Below, in pieces: positions 2,271 to 52,437 of a DNA stretch of 64,000 nt. The stretch is from a virus. Its lineage: Duplodnaviria > Caudoviricetes. The notes below the pieces were generated by a model. The model had not been told where the DNA came from. It did no database searches and saw only the letters and a list, made by a program, of their open reading frames with translations. A program made the position numbers and the translations under genes. Position 1 is the first letter of the stretch. Each line of letters opens with the position of its first letter. Location: the IMG/VR virus record IMGVR_UViG_3300028909_000001; one strand, 5' to 3'.

Positions 2271-3081
2271 TTTTGTAGACCTTATCACAAATAGTAGTAC
2301 CGAGCTATTCGTGTGTAGTACTAAGAAATCAGTTGAAATGGTCGAGGAGCTTTTAAAGAAGCTCCTCCTAAACCATAATGAGATGCTGGATACTCCTAAT
2401 CAGTATGTTTTTTCCGAAGTATTTAAGCCAGTGGAAATAGCCAAATATACATATGATAAGGAGTTATTCTCTAAAGATGTAGTAGCTAATTATCATAATT
2501 ATCATTGGGAAGACGATAATTATAAATATGTTTCACAAAGGCAAAGGCCCGATTCTTATATCCAAGCTGAAATTGAAGAAAATAAGCTGAGAAAAGAACA
2601 TCCTGCCATTGTAAATCGTCGTAAGTATGAGGAGGATGAGACAAAGGAAGAACAGAAAAAACGGGAAGAAGAAAATCGAGATTATTGGAAACAAGAGAAT
2701 AGAATTTGGACTCAGGTAGGTGTAGAAACATTAGGAACTGAAGTTGATTTGTTTATTGAATTCCTTAAATTAAACAAGGCTGAGCAGTATATTGATTTAG
2801 TGAATACTTGGGCAGATAAAGCTAAAGAAGATCACTTAAAAGAGCAAGGAGGTAAGTTTGTTGGGCTTCATAGAATAGTAAGTGAAGCTGAAGCTAACGA
2901 GGATAAAATACCCAAAGAATTGGCTGAGTTATTTGACTTCTTTACTTTGGTTAACGGATATGAATTTTCTATCCATAAAGGTCAAATTCTAATCTATTCA
3001 GCTAATGATAACACCATTCCTTATTCATTGTTTGAACAAATAGCTGAATATTTTTCAGCTAGACGATATCACATAGGTTAA
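2236..3081 (+). CDS. Hypothetical protein with N-terminal SFVDLITNSS motif
   Basis: The ATG at 2236 gives MKQQLLIITPHSFVDLITNSSTEL; the same motif opens the next gene. Confidence 0.7.
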   Translation: MKQQLLIITPHSFVDLITNSSTELFVCSTKKSVEMVEELLKKLLLNHNEMLDTPNQYVFSEVFKPVEIAKYTYDKELFSKDVVANYHNYHWEDDNYKYVSQRQRPDSYIQAEIEENKLRKEHPAIVNRRKYEEDETKEEQKKREEENRDYWKQENRIWTQVGVETLGTEVDLFIEFLKLNKAEQYIDLVNTWADKAKEDHLKEQGGKFVGLHRIVSEAEANEDKIPKELAELFDFFTLVNGYEFSIHKGQILIYSANDNTIPYSLFEQIAEYFSARRYHIG

Positions 3082-3085
3082 ATAC

Positions 3086-3487
3086 ATGATAAATACATTA
3101 AAGATTACAGTACATAGTTTCGTTGATCTAATTACGAATAGTAGCACAGAAATCTACATTCAAGCTACACAGAAGACAATAGAATCAATTACCAAACTAG
3201 TTGATAATATTTTAACTGTGGCTGGTAGTACGTTTAAGTGTGAGGATTTGTTTGATATTACCATAGATAAAGAAAGTTTCTATAAGAATTATTATCATGG
3301 TGAGGAGGAAGGTGAACCTAAAAAGACAGTAGAAGAATTTTTTGACATGGAACTTGAAGCAGATGCATATAGAGATATACATATAACTGTAAAAGCCAAG
3401 ATTAACACTTTGGCAGCTAAACAAGCAGCTGAAATATTAAGTAGCTTAACTAGTCTATTTTGTATGGAAGCTCGCTACGATGGATGA
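3086..3487 (+). CDS. Hypothetical protein with N-terminal SFVDLITNSS motif (paralog of 2236)
   Basis: MINTLKITVHSFVDLITNSSTEIY. Confidence 0.7.
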   Translation: MINTLKITVHSFVDLITNSSTEIYIQATQKTIESITKLVDNILTVAGSTFKCEDLFDITIDKESFYKNYYHGEEEGEPKKTVEEFFDMELEADAYRDIHITVKAKINTLAAKQAAEILSSLTSLFCMEARYDG

Positions 3488-3493
3488 TTAAAC

Positions 3494-4354
3494 ATGTTAA
3501 AAATAAAAAGAAGAATTGAAAAAGAAGCGAATTATAGTGCGGTATTCTTTGATGGTAAAACATTAAGAATACCGCTTAATCCTTCTAAACCAATCACAGA
3601 ATTACGATATCCAGAATTCTATGACCTTAGTTTTGGTGATAAGTGTGTAACTGGAAAATGTCCATGGTGTTATGCTAAAGGAAATCCTAAAGGTAAGCAC
3701 TATTCTAATATAGTAGGCAAGATTGAGAAGTATTTTGGTTCAATGACAGAGAACCAACGTTGTTTCCAGGTAGCTGTTGGTGGGCAGCAAGAACCATTAG
3801 AGCATCCTGAATTCTGGGATGCAATGAAGTTGCTAAAAAGTTTGGATATTGTTCCTAACTATACTACTAACGGAGTTCTATTTGATGAAAATGTAGTTAA
3901 CAAGACTAGAGAACATTGTGGTGGAGTAGCAATAACTCTACACCCTCATTTAGAAGATGATTGGAGGAAAGCGTTGGATTTGGCTATTAAGTGTAAACTT
4001 AAGGTTAATATTCATTTTATAGTATCAGATGAAGATTCAGTAGATAGGTTAATTACACTCTATAATGAATATAACGGCAAAATTGATTACTTCGTTCTAT
4101 TACCTTACATGAATGTTGGTTTTGCTGCTAAGAACCCTAAAACCATAGCTTATGATAAACTTGCTGCTTGGTTAGATAGTGTCCAGAATTACGCTAATAT
4201 TGCTTTTGGTGCTAACTTCTATAAGTTCCTTAATACTAATAAGAGGTGGGATGTCTCATTATACCCTCCAGAAATCTTGAGTAAATATCTAGTATTAGAT
4301 GACAATATGAATTTGTATAATAACAGTTTTGAAATGAAGCTAGTTAGATATTGA
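3494..4354 (+). CDS. Radical SAM protein
   Basis: CVTGKCPWCY cluster motif (CX4CX2C spacing), VAVGGQQEPL and NYTTNG. Confidence 0.85.
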   Translation: MLKIKRRIEKEANYSAVFFDGKTLRIPLNPSKPITELRYPEFYDLSFGDKCVTGKCPWCYAKGNPKGKHYSNIVGKIEKYFGSMTENQRCFQVAVGGQQEPLEHPEFWDAMKLLKSLDIVPNYTTNGVLFDENVVNKTREHCGGVAITLHPHLEDDWRKALDLAIKCKLKVNIHFIVSDEDSVDRLITLYNEYNGKIDYFVLLPYMNVGFAAKNPKTIAYDKLAAWLDSVQNYANIAFGANFYKFLNTNKRWDVSLYPPEILSKYLVLDDNMNLYNNSFEMKLVRY

Positions 4355-23019: not shown

Positions 23020-24168
23020 ATGACTAAATTTAATACACTTTATAAGCGGGCTAGTAATGGGAAGATACAGGAATGGACCATAGTTGTAGATGATAATTCT
23101 TACATAGTTACGGAAGGCATGAAAGATGGAAAGCTAACTACTACCGCTCCTCATACATGTGAAGGTAAGAATCCTGGAAAGAAGAATGAAACTTTAGCAA
23201 CAGAACAAGCTCTGAAAGAAGCCAAAGCAGTTTATGATAAGAAACTTCGTAGAGGTTATGTAGAAAGTATTGGTGACGTTGATAATACTACTTTTGAAAA
23301 ACCTATGAAAGGTTCTAAGTTTCAGGATTATGAAAACGAAGTTGAATACCCTGTAGGTTATGACGATAAAATTAATGGGGTGAACTTTAGAATTAAGGCT
23401 AAAGGGATTGAAAGTACGGGTGGGGAATTCTTTTTAACTGCTCCTCACATCATTAATAGCCTAAAACCTTTATTCACTAAGTATCCAAATCTAGTATTGA
23501 TGGGTGAAGGTTATAATCCTAAAGCTGAGTTCCTTCATCAAATAACTGAGATTCTTACAGTAACTAAGAAAAACAAAGACATTACACCAGAATTATTAGC
23601 ATTAAGTGAGAAAGTTTGTGAATGCTGGTTATTTGATGGGTACGGCTTTGATAATATTGATGAAAATACTAATTGGATGAAGAGGAGAGAAGCAGTTAAA
23701 AAATTAGTCAAAGGTTATAAGTATGTTTATGTTTTGCCTTATAAGACAGCTAATAATAAGGCTGAGTTGGATATTGCTTTGGCTGAAAATAAGACTAGAG
23801 GTGGTGAAGGTCTTATGGTTCGTTGGAAAAATTGTGAGATAAAACATGGTAAAAGCAAATATCTACTCAAGCTAAAACATTGGGAAGATGAGGAGTTTGA
23901 ATTGGTGGATTTCGCTCTAGGGAACGGAAATTGGAGCACATTTCCTAAAAAAGCAATTTTCAAATTACCTGAACCTTGTAAAGATAGAGATGGTAATATC
24001 TTAACTACTTTTGCATCCAATATAGAAGGAGGAGAAGAATATCTTGCTAAATTATGGAAAGACCGTAAAGACTTGATAGGTAAGAAATTTACTGTGAAAT
24101 ACCAGCTTAAAAGTGCTTATGGTATTCCTCAAATTCCTTGGTTAATTGTACCTAGAACATATGAATAA
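23020..24168 (+). CDS. ATP-dependent DNA ligase
   Basis: Motif I-like DKINGV, GEGY, WLFDG, GEGLMVR, LLKLK and a C-terminal OB fold. Confidence 0.8.
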   Translation: MTKFNTLYKRASNGKIQEWTIVVDDNSYIVTEGMKDGKLTTTAPHTCEGKNPGKKNETLATEQALKEAKAVYDKKLRRGYVESIGDVDNTTFEKPMKGSKFQDYENEVEYPVGYDDKINGVNFRIKAKGIESTGGEFFLTAPHIINSLKPLFTKYPNLVLMGEGYNPKAEFLHQITEILTVTKKNKDITPELLALSEKVCECWLFDGYGFDNIDENTNWMKRREAVKKLVKGYKYVYVLPYKTANNKAELDIALAENKTRGGEGLMVRWKNCEIKHGKSKYLLKLKHWEDEEFELVDFALGNGNWSTFPKKAIFKLPEPCKDRDGNILTTFASNIEGGEEYLAKLWKDRKDLIGKKFTVKYQLKSAYGIPQIPWLIVPRTYE

Positions 24169-27029: not shown

Positions 27030-27461
27030 ATGACAATAACAAAAAGAGCTGATAGATGGTATGACGAAAACGGTAATAGTTGGATAACTGAAGAACTAGC
27101 TACTACTGACTCTCCTACCCTAACTAATTGTTATAATTGTAGAGGTTGTAGTAATTGTAGAGATTGTAGTTATTGTATATATTGTAGTGATTGTAGTAAT
27201 TGTATTAGTTGTATTAGTTGTAGTGATTGTAGTAATTGTAGTAATTGTTATAGTTGTATTGATTGTAGTAATTGTAGTGATTGTTATAGTTGTAGAGATT
27301 GTAGTAGTTGTATTGATTGTAGTAGTTGTAGTGGTTGTAGAGATTGTAGTAATTGTAATAATTGTATTTATTGTAGTGATTGTACTAATAATAAGAAGTA
27401 TGAACCAGTAACTAGACCATTTATAGACTGTACTAACAGACTATTAGAACCAGATTTATGA
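27030..27461 (+). CDS. Cys-x-x repeat protein with tail (TNRLLEPDL)
   Basis: Last 92 nt identical to those of 26084. Confidence 0.85.
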   Translation: MTITKRADRWYDENGNSWITEELATTDSPTLTNCYNCRGCSNCRDCSYCIYCSDCSNCISCISCSDCSNCSNCYSCIDCSNCSDCYSCRDCSSCIDCSSCSGCRDCSNCNNCIYCSDCTNNKKYEPVTRPFIDCTNRLLEPDL

Positions 27462-28303
27462 AAGCACATTGGATCATAGAAAATTTTACAGATTCGGAGG
27501 ATTACAGGGATTTAATTAAAGCAGTAAAAGATTTAGGCAAGGAATGCTTTGTAATAGATAAACGTAATCATTTTGATTTTAATCCTGCCTCATTTGTGGA
27601 AAATGAATGTGTAATAGTTCAAGGGTCAATTCAAATGGTTAAGAATATAGAATCTAGGTTACCTAAAAATTGCTTTCCCATCAAATATTGCACCTTCAAC
27701 AATTATCTTTGCTCGGTTTACTATCCTAAATTAAAAGACTTCCTATTTAATGATAAGTATGTATTACTTCCGCTAAAAGAACTTAAAGAGAATAAGTTTG
27801 ATTATTATCAGAAGTTTGGAAAAGAAGCACTTATATTTGTAAGACCGGATAGTGGAGAAAAGACATTTCAAGCCCAACTCTTAGATTTGCAGGATTTCGA
27901 CAGATTTTGGACTAACTCTATAGCTTCCAGTACTTTAGATGATGATTTAGTACTAGTTTCTACGCCTAAAGATATAATAGGTGAGTGGCGTTTTATATGT
28001 TCAAAGTATAACGATGGGGAAATCATAACTCAATCTACTTATCGATATCAAGGCAAGTTATGTTATATACCTGCTGCACCTGTTAAAGCAACTGAACTTT
28101 GTAAAAATATATTAAAGGTTCAATATTACCCAGACTCTGTTTTTTGCATAGATATCTGCCAGGCTGGGGATAACAAGTTCTATTTATTAGAATTAACCTC
28201 CTTTTCTAGTGCTGGTCTATATGCTACCGATAAAAAGAAGATAGCAACTAGAGTAAGTGAAATAACCGAATTTGAATATGGAAGAGAAATATTCTATAGG
28301 TGA
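27458..28303 (+). CDS. ATP-grasp domain protein (R2K/DUF4343-like)
   Basis: FVRPDSGEKTF, EWRFIC and IDIC..GDNKFYLLELTSFSSAGLY. Confidence 0.75.
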   Translation: MKAHWIIENFTDSEDYRDLIKAVKDLGKECFVIDKRNHFDFNPASFVENECVIVQGSIQMVKNIESRLPKNCFPIKYCTFNNYLCSVYYPKLKDFLFNDKYVLLPLKELKENKFDYYQKFGKEALIFVRPDSGEKTFQAQLLDLQDFDRFWTNSIASSTLDDDLVLVSTPKDIIGEWRFICSKYNDGEIITQSTYRYQGKLCYIPAAPVKATELCKNILKVQYYPDSVFCIDICQAGDNKFYLLELTSFSSAGLYATDKKKIATRVSEITEFEYGREIFYR

Positions 28304-45174: not shown

Positions 45175-45342
45175 ATGAAACACACAAAACTAGTCGAAGT
45201 ACCAACCACCTGCCTTAATTGTGGTGGGAGAGGGATTGTTGGCAAGCATCACGTAACCAACAAAAGAAACAAGCAAAAATGTCCAGTCTGTAAAGGAACT
45301 GGTGAAACAAAAAGAAACGAAGAACGGGAAGTATATTCCTGA
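45175..45342 (+). CDS. Small DnaJ-type Zn-finger protein
   Basis: CLNCGGRG...CPVCKGTG. Confidence 0.6.
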   Translation: MKHTKLVEVPTTCLNCGGRGIVGKHHVTNKRNKQKCPVCKGTGETKRNEEREVYS

Positions 45343-45354
45343 ACTAACACTAAG

Positions 45355-45390
45355 CTAAAACTCAAACTAAACATTAAACTCAAACTAATT
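45355..45390 (+). repeat. Hexamer tandem repeat in the 5' leader
   Basis: CTAAAA-CTCAAA-CTAAAC-ATTAAA-CTCAAA-CTAATT immediately before the ATG at 45391. Confidence 0.7.
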
Positions 45391-46134
45391 ATGGCTAAAC
45401 TACATGAAATCCTGGCAGTAAAGTCAGGTGTCGTTGGTAAGCTCACAAAGCTAATCAGTGACTTGACTGAACTCTTCACTAAGAAGCACCTTCACTTTGT
45501 TGAAGAACATGTTATATTCAAACCTTTGGGCGAAAATCAACAGGATGTGGTGGAGAAGAACGTGAAGCGGCAAACTACAGTACGGAAAGAACTGAGCTGG
45601 ATCGGCAATGATTTTGCTAATGTTCTGGATGTCTGTAATCGAATCAATTCCACAAATTGTCTGGCTAAGGCAGATGTAATTGTGGATGGTACAGTTCTAC
45701 TCAAGGACATTCCGGCTACTGGTCTGCTGGAACTTGAAAAGCATATTCAGACCTTCAAAAGTCTGCTCGAAAAGATCCCAACTCTTGATCCAGTCAAAAA
45801 CTTCAAGCCTGACCATGATCAAGGTGAAGATGTTTATAAAGCTGAACCTCGGGTCACTTCCAGGACTACCAAGGAGTTCTATCCTTTCGTACTGGTTCCT
45901 GCCACAGCTCAACATCCGGCCCAGGCTACGAAAGAAGTAAGGGATGTGATAATAGGTTATAAGCATGAAACGGAGTGGTCTGGCATGCTCACACCAGCTG
46001 AAAAAAGTGATCTTTTGTCTCGTTGTGAGGACTTGGTGGCCGCTATCAAGTCAGCACAAGCACGCGCCAACAATATTGATGTTGTGGGCGAGAAAATCGG
46101 CCAGGACATAGTCAAATACATCCTTGGTAAGTGA
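45391..46134 (+). CDS. Conserved uncharacterised 247-aa protein (coiled coil plus beta hairpin)
   Basis: MAKLHEILAVK, AKADVIVDG, LLELEK, AT.QHPAQ and SG.L...EK..LL.RCE.L..AIK.A.A.AN; I recall homologs as an uncharacterised bacterial/phage family but have not verified this. Confidence 0.8.
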   Translation: MAKLHEILAVKSGVVGKLTKLISDLTELFTKKHLHFVEEHVIFKPLGENQQDVVEKNVKRQTTVRKELSWIGNDFANVLDVCNRINSTNCLAKADVIVDGTVLLKDIPATGLLELEKHIQTFKSLLEKIPTLDPVKNFKPDHDQGEDVYKAEPRVTSRTTKEFYPFVLVPATAQHPAQATKEVRDVIIGYKHETEWSGMLTPAEKSDLLSRCEDLVAAIKSAQARANNIDVVGEKIGQDIVKYILGK

Positions 46135-46145
46135 TCAAACAATTT

Positions 46146-46420
46146 GGGTGAGCAGAGACATAGATATACTATGCTCTGCAACTCAAGCTCAAGTTAAAGT
46201 TAAAGATAAGGTTGAAGCTCAAGTTTTCACCCTAAGTTCAAAATTAGTTTAGGTAGTTAATTACAATAACAGATGTACTAAAGTAAAGACCTCGGTTCAA
46301 ATCCGAGCTGGGCAGCCATTTTATTCCACTTCACAGAATTGCCCGGTAGCTTAGCGGTAGAGCGTTATGATTAAGTTAAACATTTGTTGCATTGTGATTA
46401 ATAAGTTGATTAGCCTAGAC
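46146..46420 (+). ncRNA. Structured RNA with hexamer repeats and a circularly permuted tRNA-like domain
   Basis: T arm, acceptor 3' strand and GCCA (46291-46318) precede the acceptor 5' strand and D arm (46340-46364); flanking long helix; seven hexamers at 46182-46223. Confidence 0.75.
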
Positions 46421-46442
46421 GTTATATCTGAAATATAATTAT

Positions 46443-46481
46443 GGGGAGTGGATACCGTGCTAAGGGTCCACTCCCTCCTTT
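46443..46481 (+). terminator. Rho-independent terminator
   Basis: GGGGAGTGGA/TCCACTCCCT stem followed by CCTTT. Confidence 0.65.
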
Positions 46482-46507
46482 GAACAACAGCCAAAACAAA
46501 ACAAATA

Positions 46508-49903: not shown

Positions 49904-50315
49904 GGGCGTGTAACATAATCGACTTATTTTAGAAAGATATGACAGCAAGCGGTAGAAGCATTCTCGGCTACCTAAAAATGAATGCAAACGTTAAATGCTA
50001 ACAAAATGAGCATTCTTGATGAAGCGATGGCGATTTCTGCGCAAGCGGATGAGTTCGTTCCCTCCGTCAATGAAGTGTTGGTTTAACCAATACCGGTTCC
50101 TGGTCTGAAACTTATGGGACTAACGAACCGTAATCTATAAGTGAGTTGTGATAGTTTAGTCTATGTACTATTACAATCTAATTAACAAGGACAAAATACT
50201 GGAATAGCTAAGGTTGAGTCAGTTCCTTATTCTAGTATTAAAATTCTGGCTAAGCTTGTAGAAATCATATTGTTTTGAAGTAAACACGTTGGTGAGAATC
50301 CAACCACGTCCACCA
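49904..50315 (+). ncRNA. ssrA: tmRNA
   Basis: GGGCGTG/CACGTCC-A-CCA with G3:U70; 5' ...ATCGAC; tag ORF 49997-50086 ANKMSILDEAMAISAQADEFVPSVNEVLV*. Confidence 0.85.
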
Positions 50316-51450: not shown

Positions 51451-52437
51451 ATGGAAGAGCCAAAAACTGAAAAAATAACTATAGTGACCCATACAGGAAT
51501 TTTTCACGCCGATGAAGTATTTGCTTGTGCCACCCTTCAACTACTTTATTCTGAAGAGATCCCTGTAACGGTAATAAGAAGTCGTGATCCTGTTGATTGG
51601 ATAGGTGCTGATTATTTGGTAGACGTTGGGGGTGAGTATGATGCTCTTAATGGTAAGTTTGATCATCACCAACCTGGATTTAATAGTTGTAGGGAGGATG
51701 GGACACTCTATAGCTCATTTGGTCTAGTCTGGTTAGCTCATGGTTGGCAAGTTGTAAGTTATCTTCTTTATGATTGTATGCAGAAGTTAAAGATTTATGA
51801 CTCCAACTTAGAATTTGATGTTGTTGATAAAGTTGATAACTTCGTCAAAAGTATTGATTGGCAGGACCAAGGTCAACTAAACATTGTAGCTAGAAATAGT
51901 AGTCATTCAGAACTCATTTGTGAAGTAGCTACAATTCAATCAATTATAAGTAGTTTTAATCCAATTCCTTTAGTAGGCTATGATTTAGATGATGATGCAT
52001 TTAAACTAGCGGTTGGTACTGCTGGTATTGTGCTTACTAGATTGATCTTAAAGAAGGCTAGTGAGATTCTGGCCAAGCCTTATATCGAAGCTAGGATTAG
52101 CAAGCATAGTCCTTTCTTATACTTAGAGGAGTTTTGTACTTGGTATGATGTGGTAAAAGACCATCCTCATATAACCCATGTAATATTTCCTAACCAGGAA
52201 AAAACTGCTCATGTAGTCACAGCAGTCAGAATGGATGGCAATCAAAGTAATGGCCCGGAAAATCTTAGAATACCATTTCCTAAAGAATGGGCAGGATTAA
52301 CTGACCAAAAACTTCAAGCAATTTCGGGAGTAGAAGAGGCAATATTCTGTCATTCTGCTCAATTCCTGGCAACCGCAAAAACAATAGAAGGAGCAACAAA
52401 ACTAGCAATAGCAGCAACCAAACAAAATGAATTATGA
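51451..52437 (+). CDS. MYG1 (UPF0160) family metal-dependent hydrolase/exonuclease
   Basis: THTGIFHADEV, DVGGEYD, FDHHQ, SSFGLVW and FCHSAQF. Confidence 0.85.
   Translation: MEEPKTEKITIVTHTGIFHADEVFACATLQLLYSEEIPVTVIRSRDPVDWIGADYLVDVGGEYDALNGKFDHHQPGFNSCREDGTLYSSFGLVWLAHGWQVVSYLLYDCMQKLKIYDSNLEFDVVDKVDNFVKSIDWQDQGQLNIVARNSSHSELICEVATIQSIISSFNPIPLVGYDLDDDAFKLAVGTAGIVLTRLILKKASEILAKPYIEARISKHSPFLYLEEFCTWYDVVKDHPHITHVIFPNQEKTAHVVTAVRMDGNQSNGPENLRIPFPKEWAGLTDQKLQAISGVEEAIFCHSAQFLATAKTIEGATKLAIAATKQNEL

Follow-up and report, generated by a model that had tools for sequence, protein, structure and literature searches.

To our knowledge, Y RNAs and their transfer RNA (tRNA)-like heads have been described solely in partnership with the Ro60 protein. 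Here we describe a tRNA mimic of the Y-RNA type that is paired with a protein other than Ro60, whose fold has no known relative, and that also carries a repeat array. It lies in a 64,000-nucleotide (nt) stretch of viral DNA (IMG/VR record IMGVR_UViG_3300028909_000001; Duplodnaviria, Caudoviricetes), which was analysed as a whole and is called the window below, just downstream of a gene for a 247-amino-acid (aa) protein of the Pfam family DUF7873. An earlier note, made from the sequence of this DNA alone, had drawn attention to hexamer repeats ahead of the gene and in the RNA behind it, to a circularly permuted tRNA-like domain and to a terminator, and had proposed that protein and RNA form a ribonucleoprotein; we found every sequence feature that it listed in its place. 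The gene and the RNA occur together well beyond this phage, and the pair probably marks an undescribed RNA–protein particle.

The closest described RNA is YrlA, which in M. smegmatis is cut by RNase P both in vivo and in vitro, leaving a 5′ half that ends in CCA; Ro60 binding has the signature GNCGAAN0-1G, which lies in the stem, on its 5′ strand (Chen et al. 2014, PMC4201824). Like YrlA, the DUF7873-linked RNA has a permuted T arm, an acceptor-like stem and a D arm, a closing helix formed by the flanks and conserved nucleotides of the tRNA type, its modules can stand in tandem in one transcript as YrlA and YrlB do, and its 7-base-pair (bp) acceptor stem resembles that of the RNase P-cut YrlA of M. 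smegmatis (PMC4201824). At relaxed thresholds the Rfam model of YrlA (RF02553) aligns end to end with positions 46266-46393 of the window, with 32 bits and E = 1e-4 at a gathering score of 69, and related loci score 24-38 bits, the gathering score being reached neither in the window nor in 20 bacterial loci, for which Rfam returned only ordinary tRNAs. The earlier note had named a match to a characterised Rfam family as a result that would speak against it; YrlA stays below its gathering threshold here, but the tRNA-like module is of the YrlA type and has a precedent in that respect. In contrast to YrlA, the DUF7873-linked RNA lacks the Ro60-binding motif, is encoded after DUF7873 and not beside a TROVE (Ro60) gene, contains an array of xUxARx hexamers closed by a stem, a feature described in no Y RNA, and, in phages, has a genome-encoded CCA with an A-rich linker. 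It most likely represents a new family related to the YrlA-type bacterial Y RNAs. A 2026 preprint on three families of tRNA mimics deals with RNAs other than this one.

Other described systems share parts of this layout. As in two-piece transfer-messenger RNA (tmRNA), the T arm and a CCA-ending acceptor strand come before the 5′ acceptor strand, the anticodon stem gives way to a long helix, and the acceptor loop would be processed. In contrast to two-piece tmRNA, the alanine identity pair is missing, neither a tag frame nor a stop is conserved, and the D arm is a true one; Rfam gives no tmRNA match here, the partner would be DUF7873 and not SmpB, and a normal tmRNA is encoded 3.5 kb downstream. 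Permuted tRNA genes of the Cyanidioschyzon type differ in that no anticodon stem-loop can be restored from the present RNA. Like the multi-site RNAs that oligomeric proteins read (TRAP on spaced GAG/UAG triplets, CsrB/RsmZ sponges for CsrA, Cas7 backbones with a 6-nt register), the RNA of this locus repeats a short motif at a constant interval in the unpaired parts of a folded molecule, and similar sites lie in the leader of a messenger RNA (mRNA), suggesting feedback. Type III toxin–antitoxin systems (ToxIN) are likewise composed of a protein and a repetitive RNA, have no conserved neighbours, are found in phages and bacteria and make far more RNA than mRNA, but their repeats are ~36 nt long as opposed to 6 nt here; the RNA of the present system lies downstream of its gene and contains tRNA-like modules, and DUF7873 matches no known toxin or defence model.

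The DUF7873 gene and its downstream RNA in phages and bacteria

The earlier note had proposed to collect homologues of the 247-aa protein and look for hexamers and a permuted tRNA beside them. We fetched 80 viral loci encoding DUF7873 homologues of 34-45% identity, and a covariance model search located the RNA just downstream of the gene, on the same strand, in all 80, with a median spacer of 138 nt. In species-representative bacterial genomes DUF7873 is encoded at no fewer than 549 places, in actinomycetes, Myxococcota, Acidobacteriota, Chloroflexota, Planctomycetota and others (at least seven phyla), and genera with the pair include Streptomyces, Nocardia and Myxococcus, which are easy to grow. 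Among 80 bacterial loci that were fetched, 68 carry the tRNA-like RNA just downstream of the gene, 30 of these with two modules. In neither set is any further neighbouring gene conserved. Gene, hexamers and permuted tRNA-like RNA form a conserved unit, as the note had anticipated.

An alignment of twelve bacterial loci shows an RNA of ~430 nt that ends in a terminator and has a fixed order of parts: a stem GGAGYG/CRCTCC, hexamers, a first tRNA-like module, further hexamers, a conserved block, a second module and a block CTTAAACG..GGCGTGCGCA. The first module occupies the place of the variable hairpin of the phage RNAs. The block CTTAAACG..GGCGTGCGCA, located after module 2 and before the terminator (4080-4130 of locus L089, for example), is strongly conserved and common to actinomycetes, Myxococcota and Acidobacteriota, and is absent from the shorter phage RNA of the window. 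At a locus of Herpetosiphon aurantiacus (L094) there is only a long hairpin behind DUF7873, with hexamer-repeat arms of the TTAGGG/TTCAGG type (3735-3865); no tRNA-like module was detected at this locus, and the next gene resembles an ADP-ribosylglycohydrolase.

At the DNA level, blastn found nothing similar to the region among GenBank phages. DUF7873 genes are present in cultured phages of Rhizobium, Klebsiella, Arthrobacter, Gordonia, Vibrio and others, and the cultured-phage proteins among the matches listed are called 'hypothetical protein' or come from unannotated records. In the three that we inspected (phages of Klebsiella, Arthrobacter and Rhizobium) an unannotated gap of ~400 nt after the gene contains the RNA. 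The RNA of Klebsiella phage vB_KpM_FBKp24 has two heads, each of them followed by CCA. In the GenBank record of this phage a 'tRNA-Sup-TTA' (2518-2597 of locus L172) shares positions with the T arm of the second head, a label that is probably a mis-annotation. Genome annotations currently overlook or mislabel this RNA.

Architecture of the RNA, its transcripts and the DUF7873 protein

The features of the locus are collected in Table 1. A minimum free energy fold of 46135-46485 yields stem P1, the inner hairpin, the long helix, the T arm, the acceptor, the D arm and the terminator, with z = -6.1 relative to shuffled sequences. The anticodon arm is replaced by a long, irregular helix (~19 bp and an internal loop), in which TTAATTACAAT pairs with ATTGTGATTAA and ACAGATGT with ACATTTGT. 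ARAGORN calls no tRNA at this module. The 3:70 pair of the acceptor is C:G, in agreement with the earlier observation that the G:U pair of alanine tRNA is missing.

Table 1. Positions of the gene, the RNA and their parts in the window
Feature	Position	Strand	Evidence
DUF7873 5′ leader, six in-register xTxAAx-type hexamers reaching the ATG	45343..45390	+	sequence; TRF
DUF7873 protein gene, 247 aa	45391..46134	+	Pfam PF25283
Hexamer domain: stem P1, hairpin GCAGAG..CTCTGC (46152-79), seven xUxARx hexamers (46182-46223)	46146..46232	+	fold, covariation
Abundant RNA species: hexamer domain, helix 5′ strand, T arm, acceptor 3′ strand	46153..46315	+	peat metatranscriptome contigs
Connector, one or two extra hexamer-like units (TAAGTT CAAAAT ..)	46233..46256	+	sequence
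YrlA-type circularly permuted tRNA-like module, no anticodon arm	46257..46401	+	Rfam YrlA, covariance model, covariation
Module part: T arm	46291..46307		
Module part: acceptor 3′ strand CTGGGCA	46308..46314		
Module part: G73	46315		
Module part: CCA	46316..46318		
Module part: linker, 21 nt	46319..46339		
Module part: acceptor 5′ strand TGCCCGG	46340..46346		
Module part: U8A9			
Module part: D arm	46349..46363		
Intrinsic terminator GGGGAGTGGA..TCCACTCCC with T-rich tail, end of the gene-RNA unit	46443..46482	+	fold, L170 compensation

We built a covariance model of our own (R1) from the window and seven viral loci, and the window scores 109 bits with it. Across 86 distinct sequences 94.8% of the cells are paired, compared to 60.6% in shuffles and 36-48% when the partners are slid; the tRNA-like module shows 568 double changes, and all 21 of its pairs covary, so that the covariation which the first reading of the sequence had called for is present in all four helices. 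The alignment was fitted to the covariance model, which favours pairing, and an independent treatment of eight sequences with MAFFT and RNAalifold agrees with it. The closest relative, a locus (L170) whose protein is 70% identical, retains every helix of the window RNA by compensatory changes: P1 is GGGTAG/CTACCC there and GGGTGA/TCACCC in the window, the acceptor is GCGGGAG/CTCCCGC there and TGCCCGG/CTGGGCA in the window, and further compensations are found in the inner hairpin, in both parts of the long helix and in the terminator.

The hexamer domain is closed by P1, in which GGGTGA(G) at 46146-52 pairs with (T)TCACCC at 46226-32 (core GGGTGA 46146-51 and TCACCC 46227-32), and for the array within it (46182-46223) TRF reports a period of 6 and 5.8 copies. 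In nearly every phage locus a GGGNN...NNCCC stem stands between the stop codon and the tRNA-like module, and the six-nucleotide unit that it encloses varies from phage to phage (CTCAAG, CTCAGG, TTCAGA, CTGAGA, CTTAGG, GTCAGT). The runs of repeats are mostly interrupted by a variable hairpin, and in most loci one more unit follows the 3′ strand of P1. Their common denominator is xTxARx, which occurs 576 times in 72 distinct phage spacers as compared to 383 ± 15 times in shuffles. Matches exactly 6 nt apart number 134, as opposed to 13 ± 4 in shuffles with a maximum of 26, which makes the arrays a feature of the family and not of this one locus; self-identity of the spacers rises at two lags only, 6 and 12. 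Of the 72 spacers, 59 have two or more strictly phased units and 41 have four or more. A generic best-helix score for P1 failed to beat mononucleotide shuffles (19.1 vs 17.7), and P1 was assessed instead by comparing cognate with non-cognate strands, which gave pairing scores of 17.3 and 15.3, respectively, with none of 2000 permutations reaching the observed value.

Hexamers of a similar kind (CTAAAA CTCAAA CTAAAC ATTAAA CTCAAA CTAATT) abut the ATG of the DUF7873 gene, in a leader without a Shine-Dalgarno sequence; TRF gives this array a period of 6 and 4.8 copies over 45358-45386. In the 64 nt before the start codon of 72 related leaders we counted 28 phased pairs of hexamers (10.5 ± 3.5 in shuffles). 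The leader array of the window is real, and it is a minority feature among the loci. Leader units agree with the RNA units of their own locus at 2.33 of four free positions and with those of other loci at 2.07, a difference reached in 56 of 5000 permutations.

RNA from this locus is present in peat metatranscriptomes. Contigs from separate studies cover 46153-46315 at a depth of 519 (X17) and 46155-46312 at a depth of 240 (X16), and a further one (X15, depth 137) begins at 46153 with an Illumina adapter abutting, while contigs over the gene and downstream have depths of 7-24. None of the four RNA runs covers 45867-46152, a gap which by itself proves nothing, and a scan limited to promoters of the sigma-70 type found none upstream of 46153. 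The two 3′ stops fall at 46312 and 46315, the latter being the discriminator, just before the CCA. This is the pattern expected from RNase P cleavage plus 3′ trimming, and the stop at the discriminator is a weak hint of tRNA-like processing.

Among 65 distinct phage RNAs the 3′ strand of the acceptor is followed by one variable base and CCA in 57. The acceptor stem has 7 bp, the discriminator is variable, the base before its 5′ strand (-1) is T/U in 42 of the 65, and G3:U70 occurs once. Bacterial modules mostly have short closed acceptor loops, the encoded N-CCA with an A-rich linker being mainly a phage feature.

The protein is a full-length member of DUF7873 (PF25283), matching the Pfam model over residues 1-245 of 247 with 212.9 bits at a cut-off of 27. 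A profile search of 1.84 billion representative proteins collects 2,635 clusters at 50% identity, and the best 150 matches are single-domain proteins of ~250 aa. An AlphaFold (AF2) model with a predicted local distance difference test (pLDDT) score of 84 consists of a helix, a beta-hairpin, a helix, a beta-hairpin, a helix, a long beta-hairpin and two further helices. Fold comparisons with the PDB (Foldseek, VIA-align), the AlphaFold database clusters and the ESM Atlas returned only helical-bundle or TolC-like noise or other members of DUF7873, and a sequence search of the PDB gave no informative match, that is, noise or DUF7873 members alone. PHROGs, NCBIfam and PADLOC contain no match for the protein, and a literature search on 'DUF7873' found no papers. 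A symmetric homodimer is predicted with a score of 0.73 (best control 0.00), and among proteins solved as pairs 20 of 30 reach this value, as does 1 of 23 among those solved as single chains; three runs share at least 97% of the contacts and the partner has a pLDDT of 90. The model thus supports dimerisation of DUF7873. Conserved polar residues of the family are H5, E6, E48, D80, D95, H175 and Q178.

A candidate RNA–protein particle and competing explanations

On balance we lean towards the view that the DUF7873 gene and the ~270-nt RNA downstream of it constitute one self-contained module, free of a Ro60 gene in most phage genomes and never linked to one in bacteria, in which the protein is the partner of the RNA and reads its hexamers. 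The stem-closed domain displays 3-8 copies of xUxARx, next to one tRNA-shaped module in this phage and in most phage loci and to two in many bacteria and some phages. In such a model RNase P would probably cleave the transcript on the 5′ side of the acceptor strand, and trimming to CCA would leave a two-piece tRNA mimic whose 5′ piece would accumulate far above the mRNA. A DUF7873 dimer would be the partner of this RNA and would follow the six-nucleotide register of the repeats, which we consider the most economical mechanism. At about a third of the loci, the window included, repeats in the leader would allow the protein to feed back on its own translation, and the tRNA-like head would stabilise the RNA, recruit factors that handle tRNAs, or both. 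If this is true, the pair would be a second family of Y-RNA-like RNA–protein particles, would give a function to a large DUF family and would provide a natural RNA reader with a six-nucleotide register, and the CCA end of the phage RNAs makes it testable whether such tRNA mimics enter tRNA pathways.

Several observations weigh against this model. There is no tRNA-like match at 12 of the 80 bacterial loci, that of Herpetosiphon among them, and the closest relative of the window RNA has CCT in place of CCA. For the protein, the fold searches listed above gave no known RNA-binding relative, the conserved polar residues would suit an enzyme as well as they would a binder, and direct repeats are not what the predicted twofold-symmetric dimer would most obviously read. 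At the RNA level the data are assembled contigs and not reads, and coincident stops in two studies count as a weak hint; moreover, a 5′ end at 46153 falls just past the 5′ strand of P1, so that the abundant species would exclude this strand, which the model does not explain. The earlier note had taken the protein to bind the hexamers of both leader and RNA. Leader hexamers show a slight cognate excess, but only 23 of 72 leaders contain such arrays, about two thirds of the loci being without them, and local or shared base composition could contribute to the match. Lastly, the nearest virus record is a 41-kb fragment with an estimated completeness of 19%, so this phage may have a genome of more than 200 kb, of which the window is only a part, and a distant Ro gene may be present in it.

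That the RNA is a genuine Y RNA which works with Ro60, supplied by the host or encoded elsewhere in the phage genome, with DUF7873 as a tethered effector or a mere neighbour, is in our judgement unlikely, yet it is the strongest of the alternatives. The YrlA topology and the sub-threshold match to the Rfam model would suit it, as would a window that covers only part of the phage genome. As the earlier note had stated, there is no TROVE open reading frame (ORF) within the window, and among 21 DUF7873 phage genomes estimated to be at least 90% complete 20 lack TROVE and one has it. Of five complete bacterial genomes with DUF7873, four have a TROVE gene, at a distance of megabases, and one (Myxococcus sp.) has none. 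On phage contigs that have both genes TROVE is often close to DUF7873, at 1.5 kb (G002), less than 1 kb (G035, a weak match) and ~6-7 kb (G033 and G044). TROVE thus tends to be near DUF7873 on shared contigs, and the two could be functionally connected. The TROVE/Ro60 gene of G002 (2578-3936 of locus L169, 1.5 kb downstream of DUF7873) has a separate YrlA-like RNA of its own at 4129-4238 (26 bits); this phage carries both systems, an arrangement that argues against Ro60 as the partner of the DUF7873-linked RNA. The Ro motif GNCGAAN0-1G is absent from the helix of the window, which has AACAGATG at the aligned place, and is found in 4 of 81 phage RNAs, as expected by chance (3.7% in shuffles), whereas 17 of 87 bacterial RNAs contain it compared to 5% in shuffles, a modest enrichment that counts in favour of Ro60. 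The linkage of the RNA to DUF7873 is near-universal and that to TROVE is rare.

Slightly more doubtful still is a reading in which protein and RNA make up a widespread, Ro60-independent particle without a described counterpart: a dimer of new fold would read the 6-nt register, the machinery that processes tRNAs would mature the RNA into the two-piece mimic with a functional free CCA, and phages would use the particle to manipulate or protect the tRNAs and translation of their host. The CCA end would in that case be aminoacylated, be mended by the CCA-adding enzyme, or be offered to ribosomes or to enzymes attacking the 3′ ends of tRNAs.

It is rather improbable that the RNA instead antagonises the protein, with the hexamer array sequestering DUF7873 in the manner of CsrB–CsrA or of a type III antitoxin and the tRNA-like head only prolonging the life of the sponge. 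The module has two parts, stands by itself without conserved neighbours and is scattered patchily over phages and bacteria, which would fit this idea, as would RNA contigs 10-50 times deeper than those of the gene, repeats that vary from phage to phage as cognate pairs would, and the presence of repeats in some leaders. No defence or toxin model of PADLOC matches DUF7873, however, the 6-nt repeats are placed downstream of the gene and not upstream like the ~36-nt units of type III systems, and the elaborate and strongly conserved tRNA-like modules, two of them in many bacteria, seem to exceed the needs of a stabiliser.

We give little credence to the proposal that the RNA acts alone, linked to DUF7873 by transcription only, be it, in phages, as a decoy or competitor for host enzymes or defence toxins directed at tRNA acceptor ends or as a tRNA-like element for processing and stability of a small RNA derived from a 3′ untranslated region. 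The RNA is abundant, the locus lies amid phage tRNA genes and near the tmRNA gene, and the encoded N-CCA with its A-rich linker is mainly a feature of phages, which speaks for this proposal. The same pair, however, is chromosomal in hundreds of bacterial species, where the acceptor loops are closed, across phyla only gene order and strand are retained, and the hexamer domain would be left without a role.

Finally, we rejected the notion, which is hardly credible, of a new tmRNA permutation whose hexamer array is a start-less tag frame (Leu/Lys-type, or from GCA 46178) translated after charging of the CCA: the permuted order and the CCA end do resemble two-piece tmRNA, and xTxARx read as NTN-ARN would encode hydrophobic-basic dipeptides that vary at wobble-like positions, but G3:U70 is present in just 1 of the 65 RNAs and the discriminator varies, so that there is no alanine identity, the arrays flanking the inner hairpin are in a common frame no more often than by chance (11 of 37 cases), the first stop codon in frame falls 0-147 nt past the array at no conserved position, a whole tRNA-like module interrupts the array in bacteria, the D arm is a true one unlike in tmRNA, and Rfam finds no tmRNA here while the real tmRNA of the phage lies at 49904-50315.

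Genomic setting of the locus

The window, which belongs to a large phage-like genome from peat metagenomes, contains 17 tRNA genes and the standard one-piece tmRNA, which scores 78 bits in Rfam (gathering score 47) and has a big insertion in the tag region relative to the model. Directly upstream of the DUF7873 gene a 55-aa ORF (45175-45342) has two CxxCxGxG motifs, as in the zinc finger of DnaJ or in anti-TRAP; we considered it as a third component of the system and rejected it, as equivalents are present in none of 74 viral and 2 of 80 bacterial loci. Elsewhere the window encodes a homologue of the MYG1-family exonuclease (51451-52437), an ORF resembling ATP-dependent DNA/RNA ligases (23020-24168), a RecA-like ORF (646-1857) and an ATP-grasp ORF of the R2K clade (27458-28303). 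A homologue of adenylosuccinate synthetase at 40131-41573 matches phrog_1211 (PurZ type), which hints that the DNA of this phage may carry 2-aminoadenine in place of adenine.

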